From a virus: 10,456 nt of DNA. A model generated the notes under the pieces. It made no database searches. It was not told the DNA's origin and was given only the letters and a program-made list of their open reading frames with translations. Below, in pieces: positions 143 through 5,189 of this stretch; position 1 is the first letter of the stretch; the number at the start of each line of letters is the position of its first letter. The stretch lies in UHGV virus genome UHGV-0112874; one strand, 5' to 3'. The position numbers were made by a program, and so were the translations under genes.

Positions 143-967
143 TCAGGCGGTGAAAGTACCAATAAAGGTTTCTACTTTGCTGTCTTTAAATTTCTCAACA
201 AGCAGATCACGAAATTCGTTAGCCATTTCTTCCTGCACCGCTTCCAGCTGAATAATGCGCAGAACCAGTACAGGACGATCGCCAGTGATAATGCTGAGGC
301 GTAATTTAAACGGACGTTCTTTAAGGCCTTCAAACGGAACGCATTTAAATTCAAATGCCACTGGCATAATGTCTTTGGTCTTCGCTTCGACAGACTCCAT
401 CAGGGAGCGTTTGCCGCTGAAGTCATTATCTTCAAAATCAGCGGTCTGGTTTGCTTCAATCGTGATTTTGCGGACTGCCGCAGCCGCTTTTGTTGCCTGA
501 ATGGCGTCACCATTCGCATCAAAGCCCACAAGGTAGTCGGCCCAGTCTTCAATCCATTCTGCCAGTGACTTCTGGGAGTTACGCTCGCCGTTAACAGACA
601 ACAGGGCAGAGAACGGTGCTGTCTTTTTCAGTTTGAGAGTGGCGGTGTTATCTGCGTGACCTGGTTCATCAATAGTACCCAGGTTAAGTACACTGACGGC
701 ACGCATATTATCAGCATCGATAAAGCAGCGGGTGCCTTCATCTGCAAGATCTTTAGAATAACGGGTAAAGTCATCGATGCTGGCAGTGGAAAGCGCACCA
801 CGGAAACGGAAGCGATTTAAATTAAATTTTTCCAGATCATGAATGAGGAAATTCTCAGGCAATGCCACAGCATCGGCACCAATCTTACTGATAATTTCAT
901 TAACACCCTGAGCAGAAATAAGGGCATGGATTTGATTAATTGCGGTTGCGTCTAAGTTCTGAGACAT
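143..967 (-). CDS. yfdQ: YfdQ-like prophage early protein (DUF2303-type, function unknown)
   Basis: 274-aa ORF with protein-like composition; SD GAGGA 6-7 nt upstream of ATG at 967. Length identical to E. coli K-12 CPS-53 YfdQ as I recall it, and it is followed and preceded by genes matching YfdR and YfdP. Identity is recalled, not searched. Confidence 0.8.
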
Positions 968-1032: not shown

Positions 1033-1395
1033 TTAATGACCTGCTGCGCGTAGTTTTCCGTCAGGCTCACCGGCAAGAGTCAGTAATTGTCCCTGGTCTT
1101 CCTGCAGAATAGTCAGGCGACCACCGCGATTGACATACATCGGCGTTTCGGTGGTGTCTTCTTCGGAAATTTTCCCGCGGTTAGTCGGGCGAACATATGA
1201 GAGTTTGTGTTTGATTTTCACACGGTTCTCATCAAATGGTTCGATTTCCAGGTTGAGTGAGACCTTACCTTTGGTTTTCGTGTTCATCACACCGGAAGCG
1301 ACTTCACTGAGAACTGCGCCGATTTTGGTTTCAAATACGCCGCCGTCCAGCTCCCCGATAAATGCCTGCACATCAGTACTGCGTTCGCTAGCCAT
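1033..1395 (-). CDS. yfdP: YfdP-like small prophage early protein (120 aa)
   Basis: The track ORF 1033..1581 starts at a TTG inside a structured region. The internal ATG at 1395 (MASERSTDVQAF...) has SD AGGAG upstream (rc reads ATGATGAGGAGCAGCAAAATGGCT) and gives 120 aa, the size recalled for K-12 YfdP, directly upstream of yfdQ-like. Confidence 0.7.
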   Translation of the reverse strand: MASERSTDVQAFIGELDGGVFETKIGAVLSEVASGVMNTKTKGKVSLNLEIEPFDENRVKIKHKLSYVRPTNRGKISEEDTTETPMYVNRGGRLTILQEDQGQLLTLAGEPDGKLRAAGH

Positions 1396-1443
1396 TTTGC
1401 TGCTCCTCATCATATCGACCCTGCAAGGTCGGTTGGTTTCTCC

Positions 1444-1532
1444 ACAAAACAGAGAAGAACACCTGCGGTGGCAGCCGCCCGGATGTATTGGGTTATGAGC
1501 CCGTCGTCCGGTGATGCTCTTCTCTGTTTTGT
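1444..1532 (-). promoter_or_regulatory. Large inverted repeat (15-bp perfect stem, 59-nt interior) in the pL leader, just upstream of the yfdP-like RBS
   Basis: ACAAAACAGAGAAGA (1444-1458) is the exact reverse complement of TCTTCTCTGTTTTGT (1518-1532). A further 5-bp hairpin CGACC/GGTCG sits at 1416-1431 between it and the RBS. Confidence 0.5.
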
Positions 1533-1578
1533 AAAAAGAGCGGTACCAGCCGGAAGCAAGTGTACAAACTGGTACCGC
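1530..1578 (-). terminator. Intrinsic-terminator-like hairpin (10-bp perfect stem, 19-nt loop) followed on the minus strand by UCUUUUUAC; the overlapping sequence CGCTCTTTTTACA resembles boxA
   Basis: GCGGTACCAG (1540-1549) pairs with CTGGTACCGC (1569-1578). On the transcribed minus strand the hairpin is followed by CTCTTTTTAC. CGCTCTTT matches the lambda/rrn boxA core CGCTCTT(A/T) as I recall it. Confidence 0.45.
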
Positions 1579-2009
1579 CAAAGCAGTGGCTGTTGTGGTG
1601 ACCGGTGCTGATCTCCGGTTTGCGGTTATTTCAGACTCTCACGGGCATTTAATTGCCCCGCCGAACAGCTCTTTTCCGCAATAGCTGCAATGTCTTTCGC
1701 GCATCAGCCTGCGCATTCACCACAACGCTGAGAGCACTTAGCCAGTTACGGCACCACACTTTGTCGCGGTTCCATAAATGCCCTCATCGTTGCACCCTGG
1801 TCTCTTCCCAGGCGTCAAACCGAATCGCCACGCTGGTTAGGCGTCTTATCAGCATCCTCATTGACTTGCACATTCCGGCTACCTGGTTTGTTTGCCCGAG
1901 CAAGGAGTGGATTGGCCCCTTTAACGTCCCCAGACCGCTAACGACGCATGTGCCATACGCCGTGTTACAACCAAATTTTGTTAGTACCTTGTTTGTTGGT
2001 CTGGAAAGA

Positions 2010-2061
2010 AAGATAAAATGAAGTTGCGCATTATGCAAGTGTTTTGTTGCGAGATATGCAA
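2010..2061 (-). promoter_or_regulatory. oL/pL: two 15-bp operator-like sites (TTGC-N7-GCAA) overlapping a leftward promoter
   Basis: TTGCGCATTATGCAA (2024-2038) and TTGCGAGATATGCAA (2047-2061), centres 23 bp apart. On the minus strand -35 TTGCAT (2038..2033), 17-nt spacer, -10 TATCTT (2015..2010). Same half-site family as the cI-cro intergenic sites. Confidence 0.5.
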
Positions 2062-2070
2062 CTTGGTGGG

Positions 2071-2096
2071 TAATGAAAAGCCACCTTCGGGTGGCT
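2071..2096 (-). terminator. Rho-independent terminator of the cI transcript
   Basis: Stem AGCCACC (2079-2085) / GGTGGCT (2090-2096) with TTCG loop, 20 nt downstream of the cI stop, followed on the minus strand by UUUUCAUUA. Confidence 0.6.
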
Positions 2097-2116: not shown

Positions 2117-2809
2117 TTAATTGTGTCGCTTAAGGGTTTGTGACTGGCTGATTAAGACCTTTCCAAAGACCATAAACCGGTGTTCATTTTCGCTGGTAAT
2201 TCCCCATTCACGGTAAATCTGGTTATCAGAAATCACCAGTAGTTTGTCAGGTATCATTTGCAGTCGTTTGACATAAATTTTATCATCAAAACCAAATACA
2301 TAGATACCATCTCCATCAAACTGATTGATACTGACATCAACGAAGATGAGATCTCCTGGCTCAATGGTTGGACACATACTGTCCCCACGAACGTTGATAA
2401 CTTTAATGTGATTGGCTGGTCGTCCGCCAAACATCGATACAGCATTATCAGTTCTGTATTCAATGGCATGAATCACATCAATGACATCACCGCCCTGGAT
2501 AAGGCCATTTCCCGCACTGGCACTGACATCCAGCATTTCAATACGGAATACATCCTTCACCTGCGCAACATCCTCATTAATACTGTTTTTACATACAGTA
2601 TTACTTTTGAAGTCTGAGGTAAAGAGATCAGCAATATCAACACCTAAGCTCCTGGCAATATTACTCAGGGCTTGTTCAGTGAATTGTTTCTGCTTACCTG
2701 TTTCCAGGCGCGAGATATTCGCCGCATCCACTCCTATTGCTTCAGCGAGATCGGCGATTTTCATGTTCTTCGCCTGGCGAAGTTGTCTGACTCGATTTCC
2801 TATGTTCAT
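2117..2809 (-). CDS. CI-type phage repressor (N-terminal XRE HTH, C-terminal S24/LexA-like autopeptidase domain)
   Basis: 230 aa. N-terminus MNIGNRVRQLRQAKNMKIADLAEAIGVDAANISRLETGKQ is a typical HTH; C-terminal ...VRGDSMCPTIEPGDLIFVD...KIYVKRL carries the Ser (GDSM) and Lys (KRL) catalytic pattern of LexA/CI-type repressors. Divergent from cro-like with operators between. No SD upstream of the ATG. Confidence 0.9.
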   Translation of the reverse strand: MNIGNRVRQLRQAKNMKIADLAEAIGVDAANISRLETGKQKQFTEQALSNIARSLGVDIADLFTSDFKSNTVCKNSINEDVAQVKDVFRIEMLDVSASAGNGLIQGGDVIDVIHAIEYRTDNAVSMFGGRPANHIKVINVRGDSMCPTIEPGDLIFVDVSINQFDGDGIYVFGFDDKIYVKRLQMIPDKLLVISDNQIYREWGITSENEHRFMVFGKVLISQSQTLKRHN

Positions 2810-2906: not shown

Positions 2907-3167
2907 ATGCAATCACCATTACGGAATGTGCGTAAGGCGCACGGATTTACTTTGCAGCATGTTGCTGCTGGCGTTCAGGTCAATCCAGCGACGCTGAGTC
3001 GTATTGAAAGACTGGAACAAATTCCATCTATCGATCTTGCAGAACGTCTGGCCAATTTTTTTAAGGGTGAAATCAGCGAAATGCAGATTCTTTATCCGGC
3101 ACGTTTTCAATCTAGCCAAAACCAGAATGGGTTTAAACCACAGGAACAGGAGGTAAGCCGTGGGTAA
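2907..3167 (+). CDS. Cro-like HTH (XRE-family) regulator
   Basis: 86 aa. HTH ...KAHGFTLQHVAAGVQVNPATLSRIERLEQIPS...; SD GGAGG 4 nt upstream of the ATG; divergent from the CI-like gene. Confidence 0.85.
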   Translation: MQSPLRNVRKAHGFTLQHVAAGVQVNPATLSRIERLEQIPSIDLAERLANFFKGEISEMQILYPARFQSSQNQNGFKPQEQEVSRG

Positions 3168-3711
3168 TCATCACTGGAAAGTGGAAAAACAGCCTGAGTG
3201 GTACGTGAAAGCTGTCAGAAAAACTATCGCGGCGTTGCCGGGGGGTTACGCTGAAGCTGCTGAGTGGCTGGATGTAACAGAGAACGCTTTATTCAACCGC
3301 CTTCGTGCAGATGGCGATCAGATTTTCCCGCTGGGATGGGCAATGATTTTACAGCGTGCTGCTGGCACTCACTACATTGCGGATGCTGTCGCACAGTCTG
3401 CTGGTGGGGTGTTTGTATCGCTTCCTGAAATTGAGGAAGTAGAGAACGCAGATATAAACCAGCGCCTGCTGGAAGTCATCGAACAGATCGGGAGTTACTC
3501 AAAGCAGATTCGTTCGGCAATCGAAGATGGGGTAGTGGAGCCACACGAGCAGACAGCAATTAATGATGAATTGTATCTGTCAATTTCGAAGCTCCAGGAG
3601 CATGCGGCACTGGTCTACAAAATTTTCTGCGCTCCAGAAAAGAGTGACGCCCGCGAGTGTGCAGCTCCGGGCGTCGTGGCGTTTTGTGTCTGTGGAGAAA
3701 CTAACGCATGA
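3160..3711 (+). CDS. CII-like / YdaT-like early regulatory protein (positional analogue of lambda CII)
   Basis: 183-aa ORF with GTG start at 3160 and SD AGGAGG (3148-3153) at 6-nt spacing, overlapping the cro stop by 8 nt (translational coupling). Position directly after cro and the size fit YdaT/CII-type proteins of Rac-like prophages; assignment by recollection and context only. Confidence 0.7.
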   Translation: MGNHHWKVEKQPEWYVKAVRKTIAALPGGYAEAAEWLDVTENALFNRLRADGDQIFPLGWAMILQRAAGTHYIADAVAQSAGGVFVSLPEIEEVENADINQRLLEVIEQIGSYSKQIRSAIEDGVVEPHEQTAINDELYLSISKLQEHAALVYKIFCAPEKSDARECAAPGVVAFCVCGETNA

Positions 3712-3856
3712 ACAGTTTAACGGCAAATAACCGTTTGTCGCAACAGCTGGTGGTCAGCGTCGCTGAACACCTGTTGTTACGGCATGAATGCAGATTACCA
3801 AATCACCTGGCTGTAAGTAACCACAGAGAACTTTACCTGACTGTGGGGGGCGAGTT

Positions 3857-4036
3857 GTGCAGGAACTTAACCGCTGGTTTCGTGACGGAAGAGGGCTTTA
3901 TGTCCATGTTATTCGTTGGGAGCCAGAAACACAGCGCGTTATCTATCTTCGCAAAGACTACCCGCATGAGTGCTTTAGTCCTTTGTGGAAATTCAGGCGT
4001 GATTTTGTTGAGTGTGAAGGACCACCAGCACATTGA
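3857..4036 (+). CDS. Small hypothetical protein (59 aa, GTG start) not in the ORF track; lies in an alternative frame inside the 5' part of track ORF 3708..5189
   Basis: GTG 3857 preceded by GGGGGG (3845-3850). Translation MQELNRWFRDGRGLYVHVIRWEPETQRVIYLRKDYPHECFSPLWKFRRDFVECEGPPAH has a balanced, protein-like composition (W, Y, charged residues), whereas the overlapping frame-0 translation is Leu/Ser/Val/His-rich and looks non-coding. Confidence 0.4.
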   Translation: MQELNRWFRDGRGLYVHVIRWEPETQRVIYLRKDYPHECFSPLWKFRRDFVECEGPPAH

Positions 4037-4121
4037 TTCTGCCATTCCGGGACGTTACACTGTTCAGGCACCTTATAAAGCGGGTGCCGGGATTGGCGTC
4101 CTGGAGAAGGCTACCGCGTAC

Positions 4122-4144
4122 AACCGCGTAGATGCGGTTTTTTT
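4122..4144 (+). terminator. Candidate intrinsic terminator (tR1-like) between the small ORF and the Rha-family gene
   Basis: AACCGC (4122-4127) - GTAGAT loop - GCGGTT (4134-4139) followed by a T-run to 4144 (7 T including the stem end). Confidence 0.35.
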
Positions 4145-4310
4145 GTACGCATTATTTTGTCACGCCCAAATTATGGTGGGGCGTACAGGGGCATCGCAAG
4201 ATGCGCCGGTAAGGGTAGCCGCCGGTAACGCCAACTCTGTACGTCTCACCACCTCTATGATTGGCGTCTTATGTGGTGAGTTTTTTAAGCTTGCTACCGA
4301 GGCTGCCATT

Positions 4311-5189
4311 ATGGCTACGATCCCAACCTTTGTTCACCCTGAAATCACGATCATCAATGGTCGTGCTGTCACTACATCTCTTGCAGTTGCTAACTACTTT
4401 ACTAAACGGCATGAGCGGGTTTTAGATAGAATTCGAAACCTTGAATGCTCCGCTGAATTTGCTGAACACAATTTTGTGTTAAGTGGTTACCAGCATATTG
4501 CTGACCAGTGCGAGATTAGCAAACGTTCTGTGATGAATCATATTGCGGCCCTTTGTGAGTCCGGGCTGGTAAAAAAAGTCACCCGGAAAGGTGAAAAAGG
4601 TAACTCAAGTAATATCTATCTCCTTCATCTGGATGGTGCAGGAGATTCACTAGGGGGTAGTGCAAATAATTCACTATCTGGTGCAGCAAATTCACCAGGT
4701 AGTGCAGGAGTTGCACCAGGGGGTAGTGCAGGAGATTCACCCAGAACCAGTCACTCTTTTGAACCAGTCAAAGAACCAGTCAATGAACCAATAGCTGTTG
4801 GTGCATCAGTTGATGAGTCCGTGCGAGTTCGTTCAAACCGACCGGAATATTCTCCGGAGTTTGAGCAGGCATGGCTGGCATATCCCAAACGTGCTGGTGG
4901 CAATTCAAAATCTGCAGCCTTCAAAGCCTGGAAAGCCCGTTTGAATGAGGGGGTAAACCCCGAAACCATGCTGGAAGGTGTGAAACGCTACGCGGGCTGG
5001 GTATCTGCGATGGGTAACAGCGGCACACAATTTGTGAAACAGGCTGTCACGTTCTTTGGTCCGGATCGTCATTTCGAAGAATCCTGGGAAGTTCCTGCGG
5101 TATCTGCAGCCAGACGCGAGGATCCGTACTTCAAAGCCAGTTACGACAACGTGGACTACAGCCAGATCCCGGCAGGATTCAGGGGGTGA
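4311..5189 (+). CDS. Rha-family (Phage_pRha-type DNA-binding domain) protein with a C-terminal replication-initiator-like domain; start uncertain
   Basis: N-terminal ...ITIINGRAVTTSLAVANYFTKRHERVLDRIRNLEC... is the hallmark Rha motif; C-terminal ...FEQAWLAYPKRAGGNSKSAAFKAWKARL... resembles phage replication-initiation/replisome-organiser domains. ATG 4311 has GAGG at 8-nt spacing. The frame is open back to 3708 but the upstream part looks non-coding; 4173 and 4257 are alternative starts. Confidence 0.7.
   Translation: MATIPTFVHPEITIINGRAVTTSLAVANYFTKRHERVLDRIRNLECSAEFAEHNFVLSGYQHIADQCEISKRSVMNHIAALCESGLVKKVTRKGEKGNSSNIYLLHLDGAGDSLGGSANNSLSGAANSPGSAGVAPGGSAGDSPRTSHSFEPVKEPVNEPIAVGASVDESVRVRSNRPEYSPEFEQAWLAYPKRAGGNSKSAAFKAWKARLNEGVNPETMLEGVKRYAGWVSAMGNSGTQFVKQAVTFFGPDRHFEESWEVPAVSAARREDPYFKASYDNVDYSQIPAGFRG
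4633..4790 (+). repeat. Imperfect short tandem repeats inside the Rha-family gene, encoding a Gly/Ser/Ala-rich linker
   Basis: GTGCAGGAGATTCAC occurs at 4636-4650 and 4726-4740; GGGGGTAGTGCA occurs twice; GAACCAGTCAA is repeated at 4761-4783. Protein: GDSLGGSANNSLSGAANSPGSAGVAPGGSAGDSP...EPVKEPVNEP. Confidence 0.5.

Follow-up and report, generated by a model that had tools for sequence, protein, structure and literature searches.

In the virus genome UHGV-0112874, analysed here over a stretch of 10,456 nucleotides (nt) that we call the window, about 600 bp separate the leftward early operator and promoter, oL/pL, from the first leftward gene, yfdP. This leader (1396-2009, minus strand) is non-coding and is a mosaic of modules, each of them common to unrelated phages, rather than one leader. 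Two of these modules, named B and C, have RNA structures that are conserved. B makes up the body of sRNA-17, a small RNA (sRNA) that is already known, while C, and an element D found in relatives, are undescribed as far as the literature can be searched. The interpretation that we put forward, and that we hold to be evenly balanced between right and wrong, is that the leader would be a non-coding RNA cassette transcribed leftward from pL, in which the early-left genes are attenuated, sRNA-17 is processed out, and C acts in cis.

A leader assembled from RNA modules

The minus-strand RNA of the leader (615 nt, 1396-2010) folds better than 20 of 20 shuffled sequences (z = -4.7). BLAST searches against phage genomes resolve it into stretches of different distribution: positions 1396-1580 are common to SfV, SfIV, and ST64B; positions 1591-1740 to P1-like plasmids, HK629, and Klebsiella phages, with a 45-nt core that is also present in T1-like and Vi1-like phages; and positions 1720-1976 to phiV10 and other epsilon15-like phages, P1, P7, D6, and mEp390. 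In the order of leftward transcription, the elements are the following.

1793-1963, minus strand: module C, a pseudoknotted RNA of about 170 nt, with helices P1, P2, a variable P3, P4 with the pseudoknot PK2, and P5
1865-1882, minus strand: invariant 18-mer of C, GUAGCCGGAAUGUGCAAG, identical in 31 of 31 aligned sequences
1729-1736, minus strand: boxA-like motif UGCUCUCA, conserved across relatives, a putative binding site of NusB/NusE
1534-1727, minus strand: published sRNA-17, whose "full length" primers (supplementary Table S2) map to 1534-1565 (plus) and 1727-1695 (minus)
1592-1726, minus strand: module B, the body of sRNA-17, tRNA-shaped and STnc100-like, with a cloverleaf as its minimum free energy fold
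1533-1579, minus strand: intrinsic terminator, with a 13-bp stem (1579-1567 with 1551-1539), a 15-nt loop, and C followed by UUUUU (1537-1533)
1444-1532, minus strand: module A, a long hairpin in the 5' untranslated region (UTR) of yfdP, with an 18-bp outer stem (one G-U) and a branched top (-48.5 kcal/mol, z = -8.2)
1396-1431, minus strand: 5' end of yfdP, read directly, with a small hairpin (1431-1416), the Shine-Dalgarno sequence GAGGAG (1407-1402), and the AUG at 1395

Much of this map had been drawn in a preliminary description made from the letters and their open reading frames (ORFs). The genes and the ORF-less 600 bp lie at, or within a few bases of, the places that it gave them, and cro and the cII-like gene do overlap, by 8 nt. 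The hairpin that it reported at 1540-1578 as a perfect stem of 10 bp extends to 13 bp and is followed by CUUUUU (z = -4.1), which places a terminator in front of yfdP at 1579-1533, ahead of the early-left genes as it had supposed. The inverted repeat at 1444-1532 is significant (z = -8.2), but as 18 bp including one G-U pair and not as a perfect 15-bp repeat, and the small hairpin near the Shine-Dalgarno sequence (1416-1431) is present but no better than in shuffles (z = -0.6). The GCGCA/UGCGC hairpin at 1699-1714 is present as well, and is the D-like arm of B. Among the checks that it had proposed, folding of the minus strand gave the significant result mentioned above, and the search for covariation of the stems in relatives found it to be strong in C and B, with one compensatory change in A. 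The covariance scan with Rfam 15, on the contrary, returned nothing in the leader at gathering thresholds (whole window) or at E<=10 (1300-2200), beyond a 14.5-bit chance match to the Hairpin ribozyme. What the preliminary description took for the sequence of a junk ORF is the most conserved and least explained element of all, module C (1793-1963).

Coding potential and the missing N gene

The two long mechanical ORFs of the leader, 1784..2038 (minus) and 1653..2021 (plus), are present as listed, and the earlier view of their translations as junk-like holds. Neither has a Pfam or PHROG match; in comparisons with cdtI, phiV10, and P1 there is no enrichment of substitutions at third codon positions, substitutions being spread evenly over the three; and many indels of 1, 2, 4, and 7 nt with respect to these homologues break their frames. 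The statistics of stop-free stretches are uninformative for a region of 290 nt. No ORF of the leader has a Pfam match, and the sole PHROG matches, phrog_33599 and phrog_3651, fall on ORFs on opposite strands of the palindromic hairpin A (1410-1611), so that both families were probably built from mis-called ORFs over a non-coding element. Hypothetical ORFs have been annotated here in various public records which, together with these two families, would speak for one or more small proteins overlooked by annotation. However, the records disagree on strand and frame, the PHROG matches represent both strands of one palindromic element, and, given the lack of Pfam matches and of third-position bias and the broken frames, we hold such a protein to be extremely improbable.

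As the preliminary description had observed, there is no N-like gene: none was found among the ORFs of the window with Pfam and PHROG, and none is annotated in the early-left operon of the complete mEp460 genome, which is 98% identical. In SfV, orf33 (98 aa), encoded between pL and a B-like unit, was considered as a possible N analogue and set aside, not being arginine-rich by eye; no further search was made.

Module C, a widespread pseudoknotted RNA

An alignment of ten homologues of C shows invariant blocks that alternate with variable hairpins. In the structural model, P1 is formed by ACGGCGUAU/AUGCGUCG, and P2 by GCGGUCYGG/CCRGGUAGC, which encloses a variable hairpin; P4 has a 7-nt loop, YU(C/A)ACCA, whose (C/A)ACC pairs with a downstream GGU(G/U) to form PK2, and P5 reads CCUCG-GAAGAGA-CGAGG. 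In addition, the P1 loop GCAC could pair with the GUGC of the 18-mer, an invariant pairing that is, as such, beyond the reach of covariation. Over 31 diverse sequences, pairing holds in 98% of the cells of the model. Changes on both sides were counted in 11 pairs (65 cells), where shuffles gave 5.6 +/- 1.3 pairs (18.7 cells) and never reached the observed value (0/500); slid controls gave at most 6 pairs. The covarying helices are P1, P2, P4, P5, and PK2. A 3' extension to about position 1770 is kept in about half of the relatives. A covariance model of C (R1) finds a single match in the window, its only copy, at 1793-1963 on the minus strand (131.9 bits, E = 8e-39).

The invariant 18-mer has exact matches in at least 120 IMG/VR contigs and in the genomes of 27 GTDB species, almost all of them Enterobacteriaceae, and C is present in 1372 of 5426 complete E. 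coli genomes (25%; megablast), with no annotation under it at the eight matches listed among these genomes. With no Rfam match at E<=10 and nothing relevant for its invariant strings in the searchable literature, C is, as far as can be searched, undescribed.

Its genomic contexts fall into several kinds. Of 145 unique contexts, 70 have a gene for a cI/LexA-type repressor on the same strand, upstream of C, and most of these show the spacing of the window, with 175-236 nt between the repressor stop codon and the 18-mer; the order repressor, terminator, oL/pL, C recurs in them as in the window, where C starts about 40 nt past the pL start. In 53 of the 145, yfdP is the gene that comes next downstream. 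Some C-bearing phages have HK022-like operators, which makes C independent of the immunity type. Among 120 unique contexts, 32 have a tRNA next to C, in every case on its strand: in epsilon15-like phages, a tRNA-Arg starts at least 164 nt after the 18-mer, whereas in the P1 family, where C lies upstream of ban, the 18-mer is preceded at a distance of 95 nt by the end of a tRNA-Ile2(CAU), labelled tRNA-Met(CAT) by ARAGORN. B replaces the tRNA-Arg behind C in the window and in 21 other contexts. A hairpin followed by a U-tract occurs within 600 nt downstream of C in 78 of 117 contexts (67%), compared with 61 upstream (52%) and 44 antisense (38%). The tRNA-Arg that ARAGORN finds downstream of C in phiV10 (locus L007, about 1760-1840) is unannotated in RefSeq, where the record has the ORF p04 on the other strand.

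Module B, sRNA-17 and the boxA-like motif

B is closed by a helix of 9 bp, in which GUUGUGGUG (1726-1718) pairs with CACCACAAC (1600-1592). Two to three nt past the closing strand stands a D-like hairpin (1714-1699, GCGC-AGGCUGAU-GCGC), and a T-like hairpin (1619-1601, (A/G)CCGG-AGAUCAGCA-CCGG(U/C)) abuts the 3' strand of the closing helix, the middle arm being variable. At least 120 IMG/VR contigs contain a degenerate 22-mer for the 5' side of B. The two strands of the closing helix were paired by a motif-anchored search, and in 116 of 143 occurrences of the 5' side, the T-like hairpin and a complementary 3' strand follow 68-320 nt downstream. Among 46 distinct end pairs, two-sided changes are seen in 10 of 19 base pairs; they amount to 40 cells, where shuffles give 7.0 +/- 2.4 (0/500). 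The 3' partners were chosen partly by complementarity, which inflates the paired percentage, but the D-like stem, which was not selected for, still covaries, from G-C to A-U eight times and to C-G once. In SPC32H, a real tRNA-Arg takes the place of B behind the same leader, and B aligns with its acceptor 5' strand and D arm. B itself was rejected as a tRNA: it has a 9-nt T-like loop, a middle arm of 40-170 nt, no anticodon arm, and no CCA, and ARAGORN and Rfam place tRNAs in the window only at 8022-8251.

The RNA sRNA-17 was found in E. coli K1 RS218, in a prophage of the mEp460 type, and measured as 193 nt by 5'/3' rapid amplification of cDNA ends (RACE) and Northern blot (Sun et al. 2020, PMC7719688). 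It was placed in the window through the published primers: those for the full length, the Northern blot, and RACE match 1534-1727, with a few mismatches inside the variable arm. The preliminary description was right to name an sRNA or an attenuator among its options: 1534-1727 on the minus strand is this published sRNA, with the 1540-1578 hairpin and U-tract, a putative attenuator, as its 3' end. The published account presents sRNA-17 as a stand-alone, ArcA-regulated, trans-acting, and virulence-linked RNA, whose levels vary with oxygen and growth phase, and reports an electrophoretic mobility shift assay (EMSA) with phospho-ArcA on its "promoter" fragment (PMC7719688). This ArcA-bound fragment corresponds to 1728-1977 of the window, that is, essentially to module C. 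Moreover, the primers for quantitative reverse-transcription PCR (qRT-PCR) span 1581-1977, which implies that an RNA covering C plus B exists. In the published deletion, a resistance cassette replaces the equivalent of 1585-1702, and yfdP reads rise from 0.5 to 47, about 95-fold (PMC7719688). This strongest phenotype of the deletion probably arises in cis, from the operon that follows immediately downstream. A string GTTA-N17-GTTA at 1915-1941 (minus), within P1/P2 of C, fits the ArcA half-site pattern screened by Sun et al.; this is our own reading of the sequence, the coordinates of the site not being given in the paper.

The 5' end of sRNA-17 (1727) lies 1 nt before the closing helix of B. 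The 12 nt upstream of it hold the boxA-like motif and not a -10 element (they do not fit TANNNT). This motif, with the family consensus AGUGCUCUUUCC, or CGCUCUUUUU in some members, is separated by 2-4 nt from the closing helix of B, or from a real tRNA, that follows it, and is found in most of 80 unique B units; apart from it, the B units of other phages have no upstream sequence in common. Because of this motif and of the longer RNA implied by the qRT-PCR primers, we infer that the 5' end would come from processing of the RNase P/E type at the tRNA-like helix, more likely than from a promoter of its own.

Further B-type units with a boxA-like leader lie between pR'/qut and the holin gene of HK620 (locus L004, 1438-1544) and HK629 (locus L005, 1501-1631). 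PasA, PasC, PasD, and STnc100 are reported from that late-leader region in Stx phages (bioRxiv 10.64898/2026.05.13.724894). In P1, a B-type RNA follows just after a tRNA-Thr, on the strand opposite to the upl/plp ORFs (locus L006, about 3760-3910; AF234172, about 69.8-70.0 kb). Two candidates were discarded: PasB as an equivalent of sRNA-17, being within a structural-gene operon, and the "M3-like RNA" of HK639 as a relative of B, to which it bears no resemblance.

The terminator and hairpin A ahead of yfdP

The terminator at 1579-1533 (-21.2 kcal/mol, z = -4.1) was found by a dedicated scan for hairpins followed by U-tracts, the standard terminator scan having overlooked it with its loop limit of 8 nt. 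The RACE 3' end of sRNA-17 (about 1534) coincides with it, and ST64B and SfV have a hairpin and U-tract at the same place, with a stem that differs in sequence in ST64B. It would act as an attenuator of the early-left genes. Hairpin A is common to SfV, SfIV, SfII, and ST64B, always adjoining a yfdP homologue, and shows one compensatory change from G-C to A-U with respect to ST64B.

Element D and the relatives without C

SfV and ST64B keep the block made of a B-like unit, the hairpin and U-tract, A, and yfdP, but are without C. At the transcription start (+1) of pL, phages of this type carry another element, D, of about 62 nt.

SfV, locus L263, about 2790-2720, minus strand: element D
ST64B, locus L015, about 2165-2100, minus strand: element D

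Its consensus is (A)GCGAAC-AGGCAGGACGCCCACGAAGUAGCCGCC-hairpin-GGAUGA-UUCGC, in which AGGCAGGACGCCCACGAAGUAGCCGCC is an invariant block of 27 nt. D is present in at least 120 IMG/VR contigs, lies behind a repressor gene in 62 of 94 contexts, and has a well-placed promoter-like motif in 63 of the 94. Seven of its 15 predicted pairs change on both sides, with covariation in both the closing stem and the inner hairpin. It has no match in Rfam or to the put covariance model described below, and nothing in the searchable literature corresponds to it. The window keeps just the first 12 nt or so of D (about 1996-1985); one contig (L032) has D, C, and B in series, and elsewhere D and C are mostly alternatives. 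By position, D is a better analogue of putL than C. Promoter-proximal structured RNAs are thus a general feature of these N-less phages. For a related phage, LLS, Casjens and colleagues could merely suggest a put-like mechanism (PMC12315714).

The immunity region around the leader

The region is the immunity/early region of a lambdoid prophage of the mEp460/cdtI/Stx2 type; phage mEp460 and many E. coli chromosomes match the leader at 98-99% identity (BLAST). Its neighbouring features are the following.

143-967, minus strand: yfdQ/DUF2303, behind yfdP
1033-1395, minus strand: yfdP (phrog_204), the first leftward gene, starting at 1395
2010-2061, minus strand: oL/pL, read directly, with two 15-bp operator-like repeats, TTGCATATCTCGCAA and TTGCATAATGCGCAA, at 2060-2023, and overlapping -35/-10-like hexamers
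2079-2096, minus strand: intrinsic terminator of cI (terminator scan: 7-bp stem, 5 G-C pairs, UUUUC tail)
2117-2809, minus strand: cI-like repressor gene
2907-3167, plus strand: cro
3160-3711, plus strand: CII-like gene, with an 8-nt overlap with cro

The operator-like repeats on the pL side resemble the oR repeats at 2830-2880. The start of leftward transcription from pL is probably at about 2000-2022, placed by the promoter-like hexamers, which do not fix the exact site. A simple promoter consensus scan called neither pL nor pR; being too strict for these, it says little on internal promoters. Transcripts from pRM that read through the cI terminator would run into the leader.

Several other RNAs are found in the window. 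The pR operon holds, on the plus strand, matches to an IsrK-like RNA (4068-4144) and to the C4 antisense RNA of the P1/P7 immI type (4169-4256); both overlap a mechanical ORF of 493 aa (3708-5189), the first part of which is probably not a real gene. Downstream of a Q-like gene (6399-7151), three tRNA-like genes lie close together (8022-8251, plus strand). The cluster comprises one with a CAT anticodon, an odd one with a 2-nt "anticodon", and Arg-TCT; its tRNA types (Ile2/Met-CAT and Arg-UCU) are those that flank C in P1-like and epsilon15-like phages. The late region carries a bona fide STnc100 sRNA (10232-10449, plus strand, 123.8 bits), and the prophage thus has two RNAs of one tRNA-shaped architecture, STnc100 itself and B/sRNA-17 in the pL leader.

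Relation to known RNAs and antitermination systems

By inspection and by covariation, the architecture of B matches that of STnc100 (RF02076), with the closing helix UGGUG/CACCA, the AAU joint, the 5' hairpin, a middle part that varies, a CCGG...CCGG hairpin set directly against the 3' strand, and, after a spacer of about 20 nt, a terminator. In Stx phages, STnc100 and PasD have recently been described as structurally related prophage sRNAs in the neighbourhood of the lysis genes (Zhu, Shabalina and Storz, bioRxiv 10.64898/2026.05.13.724894), and B shares their habitat, the untranslated leaders of lambdoid prophages, as in the pR'-holin interval of HK620/HK629. The ST64B version of B matches RF02076 at E = 6.7e-6, and its 35.1 bits fall short of the gathering score, which is 47 bits; the version of the window, which differs from STnc100 in the loops and the middle arm, gives no RF02076 match in 1300-2200 even at E<=10. 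On these grounds, B/sRNA-17 is filed here as an apparent relative of STnc100 and not as a member of the Rfam family, PasD being likened to it by description. The paper on sRNA-17 describes it without the tRNA-like fold, the relation to STnc100, the position in the pL leader, or a structured RNA C in the "promoter" fragment (PMC7719688).

A second comparison is with RNAs that lie beside tRNAs in phage transcripts. The C4 RNA of P1/P7 and the M3 RNA of phi80 are processed by RNase P, as are the stable RNAs C and D of the T4 tRNA cluster. Like them, the RNAs described here may be seen as non-tRNA structured RNAs next to tRNAs, with tRNA-like helices defining their ends.

The put RNA suppresses terminators in cis via the beta-prime zinc-binding domain of RNA polymerase. 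Like putL, C is a structured RNA close to the promoter, within the early-left leader of a lambdoid phage that has no N. The preliminary description had suggested a put-like RNA, without noticing C, and only the analogy, for C, is left of this proposal. Rfam has no model that detects HK022 put, and a covariance model (R2) was built from just three sequences, HK022 putL and putR and the annotated HK639 putL; it recovers its own three at 70-93 bits, and with filters off and at E<=10 matches nothing in 1396-2060 of the window. It likewise finds no match in the loci of ST64B, mEp390, cdtI, P1, and phiV10 that carry C, D, or B. In the opposite direction, model R1, with filters off, finds nothing in HK022 or HK639, their put loci included. 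A true member of the HK022/HK639 put family would have the position of putL in its favour, as well as the first hairpin of C, ACGGCG...AUGCGUCG, of which 15 nt recur in unchanged order at the base of stem I of the HK022 and HK639 put RNAs, a likeness noticed post hoc. With the covariance models failing both ways, and with a C of about 170 nt, five helices, and pseudoknots facing a put of about 70 nt and two stems, we consider this membership very improbable. Unlike the put comparison cases, C is also found beside tRNAs in P1-like and epsilon15-like phages.

Another possibility that had been raised is a nut site for an N encoded elsewhere. The boxA sequence occurs in rrn leaders and in front of CRISPR arrays, where antitermination depends on NusB/NusE, and as in these and in lambda N/nut, a boxA-like string (UGCUCUUU/CGCUCUUU) stands here just upstream of an untranslated structured RNA. 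The leader has two such strings (1736-1729 and 1542-1535), with a 5-bp hairpin 14 nt after the first. However, the one that the preliminary description had pointed out, CGCUCUUU at 1542-1535, is real as a string but is just the 3' arm of the terminator and its U-tract, the conserved boxA-like motif being UGCUCUCA (1736-1729), which itself deviates from the boxA consensus. The candidate boxB hairpin has a 6-nt loop, GGCUGA, and not the GNRA-like boxB pentaloop of lambda; this hairpin (1699-1714) is the D-like arm of a four-way fold kept in T1-like, Vi1-like, P1-like, and late-operon contexts, where N is irrelevant, and no N-like ORF exists in the window or in complete mEp460. A nut site is, on this evidence, hardly credible.

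A model of the leader and its alternatives

The cassette proposed above would work as follows. The leader would be transcribed from pL and, in a lysogen, probably also through read-through of cI. C would fold about 40 nt past the start of the transcript, and the boxA-like motif and the tRNA-shaped B would follow. A cut at the foot of the acceptor-like helix of B, together with the end at the intrinsic terminator, would release sRNA-17 and free a 5' fragment bearing C. The terminator would in this way both make the sRNA and attenuate the early-left genes (yfdP, yfdQ, and beyond), and the fraction that reads through would be the yfdP mRNA, with hairpin A as its 5' UTR. Within this scheme, C may be a cis-acting leader RNA that gives rise to a termination-resistant elongation complex, an analogue and not a homologue of putL, possibly together with the boxA-like motif. 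We favour this role tentatively, as plausible rather than probable, because of the position of C, the missing N gene, the terminators downstream, and the invariant unpaired bases. The wider proposal, that C and, separately, D would be new classes of cis RNA, with no sequence relation to put, through which the RNA polymerase of E. coli becomes resistant to termination, is bolder, and we rate it as rather unlikely.

A number of observations weigh against this interpretation. C is also found inside the ban operon of P1 and heading the short tRNA-Arg unit of epsilon15-like phages, with no obvious need for antitermination in either place. SfV and ST64B maintain B, the terminator, A, and yfdP in the absence of C, which is therefore not required for the block, and model R1 finds no second copy of C in the pR operon of the window. 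The enrichment of downstream terminators is modest (67% against 52% upstream and 38% antisense), and the accumulation of sRNA-17 implies that termination at 1540-1578 is efficient even on transcripts that bear C. The ArcA-bound promoter fragment of Sun et al., at 1728-1977, would make the 5' end of sRNA-17 a primary one (PMC7719688), and the roughly 95-fold effect on yfdP could come from the resistance cassette's own promoter. A cis role of C is only slightly ahead of the alternative in which C is a stable RNA acting in trans.

In that alternative, which we find nearly as plausible, C would be freed by tRNA-type processing and would bind a host or phage factor, as a sponge, an anti-defence decoy, or in a function related to translation or tRNA, with no role in termination. 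On its 3' side, RNase P would cut where B or the tRNA begins, and on its 5' side, in P1, the end would come from tRNA 3'-end processing. C directly adjoins tRNA genes, or B with its tRNA shape, on the same strand and on either side, it occurs in non-lambdoid phages (P1, D6, epsilon15-like phages), its 18 invariant unpaired nt suggest a conserved binding partner, and the RNase P-processed T4 RNAs C and D, C4 RNA, and phi80 M3 RNA represent precedents. Even so, in about half of its contexts C stands 20-40 nt past a repressor-controlled early promoter and heads an mRNA operon with no tRNA near. A different possibility concerns sRNA-17 rather than C: it might be an independent gene, transcribed from its own ArcA-repressed promoter in 1728-1977, so that the leader would merely be an sRNA gene between pL and yfdP. 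The EMSA with phospho-ArcA on that fragment, the levels that depend on oxygen and growth phase, and the fact that the RNA is expressed in a lysogen, a state in which pL is expected to be repressed, all speak for it (PMC7719688). On the other side, the fragment is module C, a covarying RNA; no sigma-70-like promoter is called on the minus strand of 1730-1990, in a scan that also fails on pL and pR; the B units of other phages share just the boxA-like motif upstream; and the qRT-PCR amplicon, starting from 1977, detects a longer RNA. In addition, RACE apparently did not discriminate primary from processed ends (PMC7719688). We regard a separate promoter as unlikely, yet deserving of serious consideration. 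C might also be a leader of the riboswitch type, which would sense a ligand or a tRNA and decide whether the downstream terminator forms. Its complex pseudoknotted fold with many invariant unpaired bases, its place upstream of a terminator, and the P4 loop YU(C/A)ACCA, which is similar to the 3' end of a tRNA and has GGU(G/U) as its pairing partner, are what such a leader might show. Nevertheless, C and the terminator of the window lie about 215 nt apart, with a whole sRNA between them, no alternative pairing between C and the terminator was found, and the downstream sequences are wholly different between contexts, all of which makes this reading improbable.

Implications for N-less phages

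To our knowledge, HK022 put is the only well-understood protein-free RNA that reprograms a bacterial RNA polymerase, and its known relatives are no more than a handful. Among sequenced lambdoid phages, many are without N, and specialists can only guess that they "may have a put-like mechanism" (PMC12315714). C and D provide two concrete candidate RNAs, supported by covariation, at the position where the antiterminator of N-less phages is expected. If they did confer resistance to termination, this would explain how the early operons are expressed in mEp460, cdtI, many Stx2 phages, SfV, ST64B, and LLS, all of them without N. For its part, the virulence-linked sRNA-17 may be re-read as a member of a widespread family of tRNA-shaped, STnc100-like phage RNAs that reside in operon leaders. 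And even if C were no antiterminator, it would still be a new, abundant, and tRNA-linked phage RNA.

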